Origin: an uncultured Opitutaceae bacterium
Lineage (GTDB): Bacteria > Verrucomicrobiota > Verrucomicrobiia > Opitutales > Opitutaceae
DNA: 24,000 nucleotides
Reading direction: 5' to 3'
NCBI GenBank assembly: GCA_964471615.1
Contig: CAYYGV010000007.1
Location: 33,473 to 57,472 of the forward strand
Shown here: positions 3,409-22,117 of the stretch, one piece after another
How the letters are laid out: the number at the start of each line of letters is the position of its first letter
Numbering within the stretch: position 1 is the stretch's first letter
Translations under genes and position numbers: made by a program
Notes under the pieces: generated by a model
The model's input: the letters and a program-made list of their open reading frames with translations, nothing else
Database searches by the model: none
Told to the model about the DNA's origin: nothing

Positions 3409-3442
3409 TTGACGCCGAGCTATTACACCATACCGTGTAATA
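3409..3442 (+). promoter_or_regulatory. Candidate arsR promoter with an overlapping ArsR/SmtB-type operator
   Basis: A perfect inverted repeat TATTACAC-N6-GTGTAATA spans 3421-3442 and ends 2 nt before the arsR ATG. TTGACG (3409-3414), a 16-nt spacer and TACCGT (3431-3436) form a plausible sigma-70 -35/-10 pair overlapped by the repeat. A related half-site TTTTACACC lies at 3362-3370. Confidence 0.55.
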
Positions 3443-3444
3443 CT

Positions 3445-3837
3445 ATGATCGCCTTGTCGCCCAAGCGGCGTTCGGTGCCGCACGCGAACCCGTTAGCCTG
3501 CCCGCCTAAACCCGCGCTCGACAGACGAGCGCTGCTCTCGAAACCGGAGGCCCGTCGGCTGGTCGGGGTCTTCAAGGTGCTGGCGAATGACACGCGGCTC
3601 CGGTTGCTCCACGCCTTGGTGCGCGAGGGCGAACTGTGCGTGAACGACCTCGCCGGGGCGCTGCGCATGAAGCCCCAGGCCATCTCGAATCAGCTTCAAC
3701 GTCTGGCGACGGAGCAGATCGTCGCCGCCCGGCGCGAAAGCAACCAAGTCATCTATCGCATCGTTGACCCGTGTGTCACGGAGCTGCTCGACCGTGGGTG
3801 GTGCCTGGCCGAGGATGCGGTCGCGCGCCAAACATGA
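3445..3837 (+). CDS. arsR: ArsR/SmtB family metalloregulatory transcriptional repressor
   Basis: 130 aa from the ATG at 3445. The winged-HTH core reads FKVLANDTRLRLLHALVREGELCVNDLAGALRMKPQAISNQLQRLATEQIVAARRESNQVIYRI. The canonical CVC site reads CVN here, and two C-terminal cysteines are present (DPCVTELLDRGWC). The GTG at 3379 is less likely because the operator lies inside that extension. Confidence 0.85.
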   Translation: MIALSPKRRSVPHANPLACPPKPALDRRALLSKPEARRLVGVFKVLANDTRLRLLHALVREGELCVNDLAGALRMKPQAISNQLQRLATEQIVAARRESNQVIYRIVDPCVTELLDRGWCLAEDAVARQT

Positions 3838-4997
3838 GCGAAGACGCGACCACGCTGACCACGCCGGACTTTGCGGCGGCGACCCGGCAGATGCACGACG
3901 CGGCGTCAGCCAAGAAGTGCTGGCAATGTGGTTGTTTGCACAGTTCGTTGCGCGCGATCGGGGAAGCGTTCCCGAACGGCGGGTCCGCAGAGTTGGGCGA
4001 CGTGCTCGCCTTGGCCCGTTCGCGCCTGCAACCGATGCGTTATGACTGTCTCGGTTGTGAAATCTGCTGGCCGGCCCTGGCGATCAACGCGCTTGGCGTC
4101 GAGGGTGATGCCTGCCCGGCAGAGCCGGTGGAAATGCGTGCAGGATGGCCGCCGCTTCCCGGCTCCTACCAAACGTTGCGTTACCATGCACCGGTGGCCG
4201 TTTGCACCCTGACCGATGAAACACTGATGAACAGCGTCGCCGCCAGCGGGAGGGGAGCAGTTGCGATTGTGGGAACGCTACAAACGGAAAACCTCGGGAT
4301 TGAGCGACTCCTGCAGAATACACTGGCCAATCCCAACATTCGCTTCCTCGTGCTGTGTGGCACGGATTCGCGGCAAGCCATCGGCCACCTGCCGGGACAG
4401 TCGCTGCTCGCGCTGGCGCGGTCGGGGGTGGACGACCGGATGCGCATCGTCGGCGCTCCCGGCAAGCGGCCCTTGCTGCGCAACCTGAGCCGCGAGGCAG
4501 TGGAGCATTTCCGGCGTTCGGTGGAAGTCGTCGATCTGATCGGAGAAACCGACGTGCCGCGAGTCATGGAGGCGGTGAAGACCTGCGAAGAAAAGAGTCC
4601 CGGGCCGGCTGAACCGTTTGGGAGCACGCGACCCGTCAATGTCGTCACCGGCTACCTGCCTGGGCGGATGGTCTCCGATCCCGCCGGCTATTTCGTAGTC
4701 TATCCGGACCGTGACCGTGGGCTGCTGCAGTTGGAGCATTACCGCAACGACGGCGTGCTGGATGCTGTTGTCGAAGGACGTTCACCCGCAGAGCTGTTTA
4801 TTCCGGTCATTGAGAAGAACCTGATTTCCCGGCTCGATCATGCGGCCTACCTGGGCCGGGAGCTGGCTCGGGCCGAACAGGCCTTGCTGAGTGGCGGGCC
4901 GTTCGTGCAGGACGCCGCTCCAGAGGTGGAAAAGCAACCTTCAGCCAAACGGTCGAGTTGCGGCTGTAGCGGACCCTGCAAAGAAAACGAGCCATGA
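3834..4997 (+). CDS. MtrA-like (tetrahydromethanopterin S-methyltransferase subunit A-like, putative cobamide-binding) / DUF4346-like protein with N- and C-terminal cysteine clusters
   Basis: The ATG at 3834 overlaps the arsR stop (ATGA); 387 aa. The centre reads GWPPLPGSY..VAVCTL...AIVGTLQTENLGIERLLQNTLANPNIRFLVLCGTDSRQAIGHLPGQSLLALARSGVDDRMRIVGAPGKRPLLRNLSREAVEHFRRSVEVVDLIG. From memory this parallels MtrA (..CKTENLGIEKV..SNPNIR.L...G.EVKGHITG...LAL..NGV....RIIGA.G.....NL..EAVERF...VELV.L). The C-terminal DPAGYFVVYPDRDRGLLQLEHY...RLDHAAYLGRELARAE resembles DUF4346. Cysteine clusters are CWQCGC...CLGCEICW at the N-terminus and CGCSGPC at the C-terminus. Confidence 0.75.
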   Translation: MSEDATTLTTPDFAAATRQMHDAASAKKCWQCGCLHSSLRAIGEAFPNGGSAELGDVLALARSRLQPMRYDCLGCEICWPALAINALGVEGDACPAEPVEMRAGWPPLPGSYQTLRYHAPVAVCTLTDETLMNSVAASGRGAVAIVGTLQTENLGIERLLQNTLANPNIRFLVLCGTDSRQAIGHLPGQSLLALARSGVDDRMRIVGAPGKRPLLRNLSREAVEHFRRSVEVVDLIGETDVPRVMEAVKTCEEKSPGPAEPFGSTRPVNVVTGYLPGRMVSDPAGYFVVYPDRDRGLLQLEHYRNDGVLDAVVEGRSPAELFIPVIEKNLISRLDHAAYLGRELARAEQALLSGGPFVQDAAPEVEKQPSAKRSSCGCSGPCKENEP

Positions 4998-5371
4998 AAA
5001 ACCTGATAATCGCCGCATTGGCGCTCCTCGTCGCACCATGGGTGCAGGCAAGCGCCGCAGACTCTCAATCGTCCAAGGTGCCATCGCCACCGGTCCGCGA
5101 CGTAGCCGCGCACCCGGCCGCGCACGTGGGACGCCTGGCGCTGACCGGCGTGGTCGGCATCGTCACGCCGGGGAAAGGCTTTGTCCTCATGGATCTGAAG
5201 GAATATCAGGAGGAAGGATTTGCGTGCTTGGCGACAGACGAGCCGATCAAAATCGCCGTGCAGTGGACAGGAGCGGCTCCCAAGGTGAGGGAGAAGGTGC
5301 AGGTGGACGGGAAATTGGTGAAGGAGCAAAAGGGCTACGCCTTCATCGCGGAAAAAGTCAGCCAGCAATGA
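4994..5371 (+). CDS. Secreted protein of unknown function
   Basis: The ATG at 4994 overlaps the upstream stop (ATGA). The signal peptide is MKNLIIAALALLVAPWVQASA. The mature part is about 100 aa and beta-rich (GFVLMDLKEY.., KIAVQWTG.., KVQVDGKLV). I recognise no family. Confidence 0.6.
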   Translation: MKNLIIAALALLVAPWVQASAADSQSSKVPSPPVRDVAAHPAAHVGRLALTGVVGIVTPGKGFVLMDLKEYQEEGFACLATDEPIKIAVQWTGAAPKVREKVQVDGKLVKEQKGYAFIAEKVSQQ

Positions 5372-21183: not shown

Positions 21184-21954
21184 ATGATTGGCTACCTCGT
21201 TGGTTCAGGATTCTACGATCAACCCGGCTTCGCACCCTCGGAGGTCGAGACCCGCCACGGTCGCGTTACGGTCTGGCGCGGTCAGGTCGGCGGACCGGTC
21301 GCGCTTATCTCCCGGCATGGCGCGGGACACGCGCGTCTTTCCCACCAGGTCAACCACCGGGCGAATCTGCTTGCGTTGAAACAGCTGGGGGCGAGCGCCG
21401 TGGTCTCGTGTTCCGTCTGCGGTGTCGTTCGGAACGATTGGCCCATCGGCGGACCATTGCTGGCGTCGGAAATGTATTTTCCGTCCAACCGGCTGCCCGG
21501 CGGCGAACTCTGCACCGTATTTGACCAGCCCGGCGAAACGGGCCGGGGCCATCTGATCGCCGGCTCCTTGATCGATGGCGCTCTGAGTGCCGCAATCGAG
21601 CAGGTCTGGCGCCGTCAGGGCTTGGCTCCGCAGATCGGCACCTACGGGCATGTGGACGGACCGCGTCTCAACACCAAATCGGAAATCAAGGCCCTGCGCG
21701 CCGCCGGCGTCGACTTCATCTCCCAAACCTGCGGTCCGGAGGCGGTCCTGGCCAACGAGCTGGAACTGCCCTACGCGCTCGCGGCTTTTGGCGTCGATCA
21801 TGCCAACGGCGTGGTGACGCCGCCGACTCCGTCGGAAGTGCTCAAAAACAATCTGACCGCCGCCACGCAGGCCTTTAGATCGTTGATCGAAGCGCTGGCC
21901 GAGCCGGCGGGAGGATTCCAGTTCGCCAATTTCGTCTACCGCTTCGGACCCTGA
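21184..21954 (+). CDS. MTAP-family (PNP/UDP_1 fold) nucleoside phosphorylase
   Basis: The internal ATG at 21184; 256 aa. MIGYLVGSGFY, ALISRHGAGHARLSHQVNHRANLLALKQLGASAVVSCSVCG, YGHVDGPRLNTKSEIKALRAAGVDFISQTCGPEAVLANELELPYA and DHANG match the methylthioadenosine phosphorylase family pattern. Confidence 0.8.
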   Translation: MIGYLVGSGFYDQPGFAPSEVETRHGRVTVWRGQVGGPVALISRHGAGHARLSHQVNHRANLLALKQLGASAVVSCSVCGVVRNDWPIGGPLLASEMYFPSNRLPGGELCTVFDQPGETGRGHLIAGSLIDGALSAAIEQVWRRQGLAPQIGTYGHVDGPRLNTKSEIKALRAAGVDFISQTCGPEAVLANELELPYALAAFGVDHANGVVTPPTPSEVLKNNLTAATQAFRSLIEALAEPAGGFQFANFVYRFGP

Positions 21955-21998
21955 AGCCAGTTCCGGGGTTCGTTATTTGCGCCATTCGCATGAGTAGC

Positions 21999-22024
21999 GG
22001 GAAGAAATCGCGGCTTCGCCCGTC
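21999..22024 (+). promoter_or_regulatory. Near-match to the recurrent ECF promoter motif (P2): GGGAAG-N16-CGTC
   Basis: The sequence is gggaag aaatcgcggcttcgcc cgtc caaac acca ATG. The -10-proximal 9-mer CGTCCAAAC is identical to P1, and the ATG at 22034 has the same 13-nt offset as the sigma ATG at P1. Confidence 0.5.
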
Positions 22025-22033
22025 CAAACACCA

Positions 22034-22117
22034 ATGCACAGGAAATTGCTCCACTCCAACCCAAGTTCTGCGGCCGCAAGTCAACTGCGCTCTTTTCCGG
22101 CAAGATTGATTTCATGA
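22034..22117 (+). CDS. Possible 27-aa upstream ORF translationally coupled to the TVP38 gene
   Basis: My own translation gives MHRKLLHSNPSSAAASQLRSFPARLIS. The ATG sits at the predicted leaderless position of P2. The stop overlaps the TVP38 ATG (ATGA at 22114-22117). There is no family support, so this is speculative. Confidence 0.25.
   Translation: MHRKLLHSNPSSAAASQLRSFPARLIS

Follow-up and report, generated by a model that had tools for sequence, protein, structure and literature searches.

In a 24,000-nucleotide (nt) stretch of DNA (C7:33473-57472, called the window) from the metagenome-assembled genome (MAG) of an uncultured Opitutaceae bacterium, we found that the gene for an extracytoplasmic function (ECF) sigma factor (7055-7606, forward strand) shares an upstream motif with other genes of an arsenic/thiol-redox island, and that this motif mostly lies at a nearly fixed distance from the start codon. 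The sigma factor probably controls an autoregulated regulon with promoters that abut the start codons, and the mRNAs of at least four genuine genes would be leaderless or have a leader of 1 to 2 nt. What we observed directly comprises the motifs, their distances to the ATG, the excess of these distances over background, and the conservation of both in related genomes; that the genes are real was shown as well.

We searched for GGAAN-N15-18-[CT]GTC and then refined the motif. Seven clean sites lie within 16 kb, each with GGAAT or GGAAG, an A/T-rich stretch, and CGTC or TGTC after a 16-nt spacer, and one of the seven precedes the sigma gene itself. Good, intergenic-looking copies are almost confined to the window; the matches in the rest of the 4.35-Mb assembly appear to be chance matches in coding sequence. 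GGAAT-N16-CGTC is a predicted ECF-type promoter. It precedes its own sigma gene, and good copies are found almost only in the island.

For each site we determined d, the number of nt from the first base of CGTC or TGTC to the A of the ATG. On the forward strand, d is 13 at P1 (GGAAT 7021-7025, CGTC 7042-7045), which serves the sigma gene (ATG 7055); at P2 (GGAAG 22000-22004, CGTC 22021-22024), before a 27-codon open reading frame (ORF) at 22034; and at P8 (GGAAT 18974-18978, TGTC 18995-18998), before the gene for a 51-amino-acid (aa) peptide (ATG 19008). On the reverse strand, d is 12 at P7, before the CBM48 gene (GGAAT 17262-17258, CGTC 17241-17238, ATG 17229), and 14 at P4, before a TlpA-like gene (GGAAT 20327-20323, CGTC 20306-20303, ATG 20292). 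These five distances had been quoted in an initial annotation of the window and proved exact when every coordinate was reread. The two exceptions are P3, on the forward strand before the GT2 gene (GGAAT 20361, CGTC 20382, ATG 20408; d = 26), and a copy on the reverse strand before a histidine kinase gene (GGAAT 15725-15721, CGTC 15704-15701, likely ATG 15648; d = 56). Outside the window, an ATG at a d of 12 to 14 is found at 10 of 451 loose-motif matches (2.2%), compared with 5 of the 7 good sites inside it. Against this empirical background, the probability of at least 5 of 7 is about 1e-7. The start-adjacent spacing of the motif sites in the window is far from chance.

Of the five ATGs, four are starts of genuine protein genes, namely those of the sigma factor, a FeoB-associated peptide, the CBM48 protein, and the TlpA-like redoxin. 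The sigma protein matches the Pfam region-2 model from residue 9, and its gene has no alternative in-frame start; seven orthologs (60-75% identity) align from residue 1, with F6, Q7, and L9 invariant. The 51-aa ORF at 19008 matches PF12669 (FeoB_associated) with 32.6 bits against a cut-off of 27, positions 1 to 38 of the profile falling on residues 6 to 42. ORF 19001-19507 (168 aa) was considered as the target of P8 and rejected: it matches no Pfam family and runs antisense to CMD. Domain support in the CBM48 and TlpA-like proteins begins at about residues 32 to 35, and the longer TlpA ORF (to 20976), which contains promoters and overlaps the divergent GT2 gene, is spurious. All five start codons are ATG, and the MerT and ArsR proteins encoded in the window are Pfam supported as well. 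The longest histidine kinase ORF, which starts at GTG 15774, holds the ECF-type motif inside a spurious 5′ extension; from the likely start at ATG 15648, the protein would begin with MPLKFQIVRR and continue into a transmembrane segment.

Conservation of the motif and its spacing in related loci

We compared the window with 40 related loci of other Verrucomicrobia, comprising ten genome contigs and thirty metagenome contigs. The block of sigma, anti-sigma, arsM, PiT, and arsS genes is kept wherever the fetched flanks cover that region, and a promoter copy lies upstream of the sigma gene in the window and in every ortholog examined. For the relatives we used a strict motif, GGAAT[AT]-N15-CGTC, which occurs in 27 distinct versions. 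An ORF begins with ATG at a d of 13 to 16 in 23 of the 27 (13 in four, 14 in five, 15 in twelve, and 16 in two). One outlying copy has a d of 19, another a d of 23, and two more, at d values of 19 and 25, precede only a 23-codon ORF. The spacing extends to targets other than the sigma gene: arsS where it has a separate promoter (L022 and L025; d = 14), a gene in L068 (d = 14), and a divergent gene for a 203-aa protein in L026 (d = 13). Copies with a d of 15 share a conserved pyrimidine-A-G before the ATG and a pyrimidine-purine step at a d of 12/13.

More distant sigma genes show a similar arrangement with other sequences. Most genomes of the genus encode a related sigma factor (about 55% identity), and in about 15 genomes its gene is preceded by GGGAATAAAC...TCTGA-N6-8-ATG. 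Remoter sigma clades have another -10 block (CTCAT-like), yet the start codon still lies 10 to 13 nt downstream. Inspection by eye of the sequence upstream of another 26 Sigma70_r2 genes of this genome showed no general pattern of start-adjacent promoters; therefore, leaderless mRNAs are not claimed for every ECF sigma gene here.

Two further arrangements were seen among the relatives. In a GGGAACAAA-type clade (L076, L077, L079, L080, and L081; sigma 50-55% identity), the sigma ATG lies 23 nt from the -10 element. A second ATG, out of frame, lies only 12 to 13 nt from it and starts an ORF of 8 codons, which overlaps the beginning of the sigma gene and may be a leaderless mini-ORF. In a Limisphaerales relative (L028:6505-6555), an extra motif copy is embedded in the sigma gene at its 3′ end; the anti-sigma ATG follows after 25 nt, with AGGAG between the two. 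This copy could act as an internal promoter of the anti-sigma gene.

Predicted transcription starts and translation

From the positions of the motifs we infer the exact transcription start (+1) and the mode of translation. E. coli sigma-E promoters mapped by 5′ rapid amplification of cDNA ends read GGAACTT-N16-TCAAA; their discriminator is 5/6 nt long, and 26/27 nt separate the -35 element from +1 (PMC1312014). We aligned GGAATnn-N16-TCnnn at the window sites with this mapped geometry. The discriminator is then 6 nt long at a d of 13 and 5 nt long at a d of 12, which places +1 at a d of 12 to 13. Thus, the A of the ATG would be the predicted +1 at P1, P2, P8, and P7. At P4, with pyrimidines at positions 12 and 13, it would lie one nt past the predicted +1. 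Todor et al. 2020 (PMC7776599) also count two likely starts from the flipped -10 base, and they describe a leaderless class among predicted ECF promoters, with A starts enriched.

We propose that the ECF sigma factor (7055-7606) would activate its own gene and its other targets at promoters of the form GGAAT(A/T-rich)-N16-CGTC, with RNA polymerase starting on the ATG or 1 to 2 nt upstream of it. The targets would be the sigma gene, the 51-aa FeoB-associated peptide, the CBM48 protein, and the TlpA-like redoxin; the 27-codon ORF upstream of the TVP38 gene is a possible further target. The resulting mRNAs would be leaderless or nearly so and could be recognized by their 5′-AUG, with no need for a ribosome-binding site. 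Both arsR and merT would have an equivalent layout at sigma-70-type promoters controlled by ArsR and MerR. Later genes of the operons would be reached through stop/start overlaps or short gaps, as is usual for this genome.

The promoter strings and geometries quoted for arsR and merT in the initial annotation are present as described. Upstream of arsR (3409..3447, forward strand), TTGACG (3409) is followed by N16, TACCGT, N8, and the ATG (3445), and an ATTACAC-N6-GTGTAAT operator overlaps the -10 element. The distance from the -35 element to the ATG is 35 to 36 nt in the window and in two orthologous loci; the operator recurs in one of them (L040), and the other (L041) has a different dyad at the equivalent place. 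An alternative arsR promoter, ATTACA-N16-TATGAT, would start inside the ORF and is less likely, given that both the operator and the spacing from TTGAC to the ATG are conserved. The merT promoter (18415..18468, reverse strand) reads TTGACC (18455)-N20-TAGCCT-N6-ATG (18417) and lies within a divergent merR-merT region of 48 bp (18418-18465), with the merR ATG at 18466 on the forward strand. In the window and in 4 of the 6 homologous loci examined from the order Opitutales, a 20-nt spacer surrounds a dyad and the ATG lies 5 to 9 nt past the -10 element. The CTACAC..GTGTAG-type dyad with its 20-nt-spacer promoter is conserved across distant Opitutales mer loci (L033 and L035-L038).

We then considered these sites against the habits of the whole genome, using 2635 predicted gene starts from a coding model whose training set was ORFs with GC1 > GC2 < GC3 and high GC3. 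TTGAC peaks at -37 from the predicted starts, with 81 occurrences at -46 to -34 against about 20 expected and a flat profile to -160. TANNNT peaks at -12, yet the -10 region that matches a TTGAC is rarely TANNNT. This suggests that about 60 genes have sigma-70-type promoters for leaders of 0 to 10 nt, with a degenerate -10 element, and that arsR and merT belong to this group. Shine-Dalgarno (SD) tetramers lie at -14 to -9 of about 9.5% of the predicted starts, compared with a background of about 4.8%. The 16S rRNA was not found in the window's MAG; in two complete genomes of the same family (L062 and L063) it ends in GGATCACCTCCTTT, and the class termed SD-scarce with conserved CCUCC includes Verrucomicrobia (PMC10783764). 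GGAG, GAGG, and AGGA are absent from the 8 to 10 nt that separate the -10 element from the ATG at the five sites, and SD tetramers are likewise absent between the -10 element and the ATG of merT (6 nt) and arsR (8 nt). The lack of an SD sequence at the five genes, which had been listed among the signs of leaderless mRNAs, is thus correct as an observation but uninformative, because the genome hardly uses SD sequences anywhere. Upstream of the predicted starts, we also observed C at -1 in 67% and at -2 in 56%, and C/T-rich hexamers (CAACCC, AACCCT, and CCCTTT) are enriched 5 to 6 times at -22 to -4.

Translational coupling through ATGA/TGATG overlaps had also been proposed as part of the translation strategy. 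All eight overlaps (2021, 3834, 4994, 5368, 9526, 10626, 13570, and 22114) are present. However, of 831 close junctions throughout the genome, 225 are 4-nt ATGA overlaps, more than of any other kind. Therefore, the overlaps in the window are ordinary and reflect a genome-wide habit, not a special strategy of the island.

Several observations weigh against leaderless mRNAs at these sites. Two of the seven motif sites are leadered, with predicted leaders of about 13 nt (GT2) and about 43 nt (histidine kinase). The CBM48 gene lies 43 nt behind a gene on the same strand, and read-through from merT is possible. The arsR -10 element (TACCGT, 8 nt from the ATG) is weak, and the alternative hexamer pair is present. 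In orthologs with a d of 15, the bases before the ATG suggest a 2-nt leader (5′-AG-AUG) at least as strongly as none. L044 encodes a TVP38 ortholog (70% identity) whose promoter is similar but whose leader is about 70 nt long, and the 27-codon ORF is missing there. The ATG at 22034 had been listed with the other gene starts, but it opens an unconserved ORF of only 27 codons in a frame different from that of TVP38, the stop of which overlaps the TVP38 ATG at 22114 (ATGA). It matches no Pfam family, and none of the 20 TVP38 orthologs checked retains it. Since it is short, has no homologs, and is absent from L044 despite the similar promoter there, the fifth case is doubtful.

With these points in mind, we asked which other explanations would account for the spacing. 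The motifs could be real ECF promoters that give leaders of 1 to 5 nt, translated by SD-independent 30S initiation; the closeness of promoter and gene would then be due to compaction, with no dedicated 5′-AUG/70S mechanism. This would fit the most frequent ortholog spacing of 15 nt with its conserved Y-A-G-ATG, the near absence of an SD signal in a genome whose relatives keep the CCUCC tail (PMC10783764), and the genome-wide spread of TTGAC over -46 to -34, which implies leaders of 0 to 10 nt. However, the d of 12 to 13 at four window sites is exactly the mapped +1 position of sigma-E, all five starts are ATG, and a distance kept at 13 to 16 nt in divergent orthologs suggests that the spacing itself is under selection, beyond compaction. 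We therefore regard leaders of this kind as an unlikely account of the island genes. It is less likely again that the genes are expressed mostly from longer read-through or upstream transcripts, with motif-proximal starts that are minor or silent, so that the genes are effectively leadered. The position of the CBM48 gene, the placement of the small ORF at 19008 after merR, the long leader of the TVP38 ortholog, and the two leadered motif sites in the window would all agree with such transcripts. But the motif and its spacing are conserved, and the intergenic regions before the sigma gene, the TlpA-like gene (about 115 bp), and merT (48 bp) are too short for a second promoter plus a leader.

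The sigma dependence of the motif is itself predicted, and GGAAT-N16-CGTC could instead be a site other than a promoter, such as one for a repressor or activator, in which case its distance to the ATG would be irrelevant to the 5′ end. We consider this very improbable. The element fits the geometry of the ECF consensus in its two blocks, in the 16-nt spacer, and in the A/T-rich run that follows the -35 element; each ortholog examined has a copy upstream of its sigma gene; and the -10 block shifts in the remoter sigma clades (TCTGA and CTCAT), as sigma specificity predicts. The leaderless mRNAs proposed at the outset are thus upheld in part: the geometry matches that mapped for sigma-E and is kept in relatives (sigma, arsS, merT, and arsR), whereas the commonest ortholog spacing, 15 nt with Y-A-G before the ATG, fits a 2-nt leader at least equally well. 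An autoregulated ECF regulon with start-abutting promoters still accounts best for these observations taken together. A wider version, in which every gene of the ECF regulon, organoarsenical and thiol-redox genes alike, has a leaderless mRNA, selected and kept from family to class across Verrucomicrobia, is one that we hold only tentatively and think rather doubtful. It would include as leaderless mini-ORFs the 27-codon ORF before TVP38 and the 8-codon ORF at the sigma start of the GGGAACAAA-type sister clade. If it were true, leaderless initiation would be a selected property of a stress regulon in an SD-poor phylum, beyond a by-product of compaction, and the mini-ORFs would deliver ribosomes to downstream genes that lack an SD sequence.

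Comparison with known systems

Both leaderless ECF promoters and leaderless mRNAs in Verrucomicrobia have already been published; the window is an ordinary example and holds no new mechanism. The sigma-E promoters of E. coli (Rhodius et al. 2005/2006, PMC1312014) resemble those of the window in their GGAAC/T -35 element, 16-nt spacer, (C)GTC-containing -10 element, 5/6-nt discriminator, and autoregulation. Their targets have ordinary leaders with ribosome-binding sites, whereas in the window the start codon lies on the predicted +1 to +3. Leaderless ECF-dependent promoters have been predicted across phyla, with SigR/SigH/SigE-type targets in Actinobacteria (Todor et al. 2020, PMC7776599); like those of the window, they are autoregulated and have a predicted 5′ untranslated region of about 0 and an initiating A. 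That leaderless class is shown for Actinobacteria, and Verrucomicrobia go unmentioned in the main text, whereas the window is an Opitutaceae-like arsenic/thiol-redox island. In the acuR-acuI-dddL operon of Rhodobacter sphaeroides (PMC3017554), the first gene encodes the operon's own repressor and the mRNA is leaderless, as would be the case for arsR. The regulator family and the organism are different there, and the arsR case in the window is a prediction. For Verrucomicrobia, Cappable-seq of Akkermansia muciniphila found about 10% of transcription start sites (TSS) to be leaderless, coinciding with annotated starts (Ettwiller et al. 2016, PMC4782308). Akkermansia shares its phylum with the host of the window and differs in class and family, and the leaderless TSS in that study (PMC4782308) are not tied to ECF promoters or to a regulon. 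Given these TSS, leaderless initiation works in Verrucomicrobia.

MerR-family promoters, such as PmerT of Tn501/Tn21, have spacers of 19 to 20 bp, and the merT mRNAs of these transposons carry a leader with an SD sequence. The merT locus of the window is like Tn501/Tn21 PmerT in its divergent merR-merT arrangement and its over-long spacer (20 nt in the window) holding the operator dyad. It is unlike the transposon merT in that the ATG follows the -10 element so closely (5-9 nt past it), both here and in the 4 of 6 Opitutales loci.

If confirmed, these promoters would fix the true start codons of several island genes. A 51-aa peptide missed by ORF finders would be gained, and the TlpA and histidine kinase ORFs would be shorter than the longest-ORF rule makes them. 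A nonactinobacterial, SD-poor lineage would join the bacteria with leaderless ECF stress regulons, and the spacing rule (ATG 12 to 16 nt after the first base of CGTC) would help to annotate starts and regulon members in Verrucomicrobia MAGs.

Gene map of the window

We mapped the genes of the window by Pfam scans. On the forward strand, arsR (3445-3837) is followed by an MtrA/DUF4346 gene and two genes of unknown function. The operon behind the sigma gene (7599..14157) encodes an anti-sigma-like protein, an ArsM-like methyltransferase, a PiT transporter, and an ArsS-like protein (radical-SAM DUF3641), followed by DUF547, DUF2064, an unknown gene, and a redoxin. Its junctions include an 8-nt overlap at 7599, TGATG at 9526, and ATGA at 10626 and 13570, and SD-like sequences precede some of its internal genes (AAGGAG upstream of 7599 and GGAGG upstream of 10626). 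The gene that overlaps the sigma stop is conserved; its sole Pfam match is DUF3379 with 28.6 bits, under the cut-off of 33.2.

The remaining genes lie on both strands. On the reverse strand are the histidine kinase gene (14191-15774 as the longest ORF, with its likely start at ATG 15648), the gene for the CBM48/AMPK1_CBM protein (16861-17229; 122 aa, Pfam supported), the MerT-HMA fusion gene (17830-18417), divergent from merR, and the TlpA-like redoxin gene (19783-20292; 169 aa), divergent from the GT2 gene and a PNP-family gene. The forward strand carries merR (18466-18858), the gene for the 51-aa FeoB-associated Cys-rich membrane peptide (19008-19163; PF12669), and the TVP38/VTT gene (ATG 22114), followed by a pyridine-nucleotide disulfide reductase gene; the map also holds the CMD gene.

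There is a second ECF sigma ORF of 252 aa on the reverse strand (2021-2779), in which region 2 begins only at residue 99. This ORF is probably overextended, and ATG 2578 (MEIPSDNE...) is a likelier start; TATATC lies 16 nt upstream of it, and it is not leaderless. The sigma-arsM-PiT-arsS block also occurs in MAGs that carry the labels Opitutaceae, Opitutia, and Limisphaerales; a Verrucomicrobiales-labelled MAG has the sigma gene too. The GC content of the window is 63%, compared with 67% for the whole assembly (4.35 Mb in 292 contigs). The low GC content and the recurrence of the block across MAG labels are consistent with a horizontally shared island.

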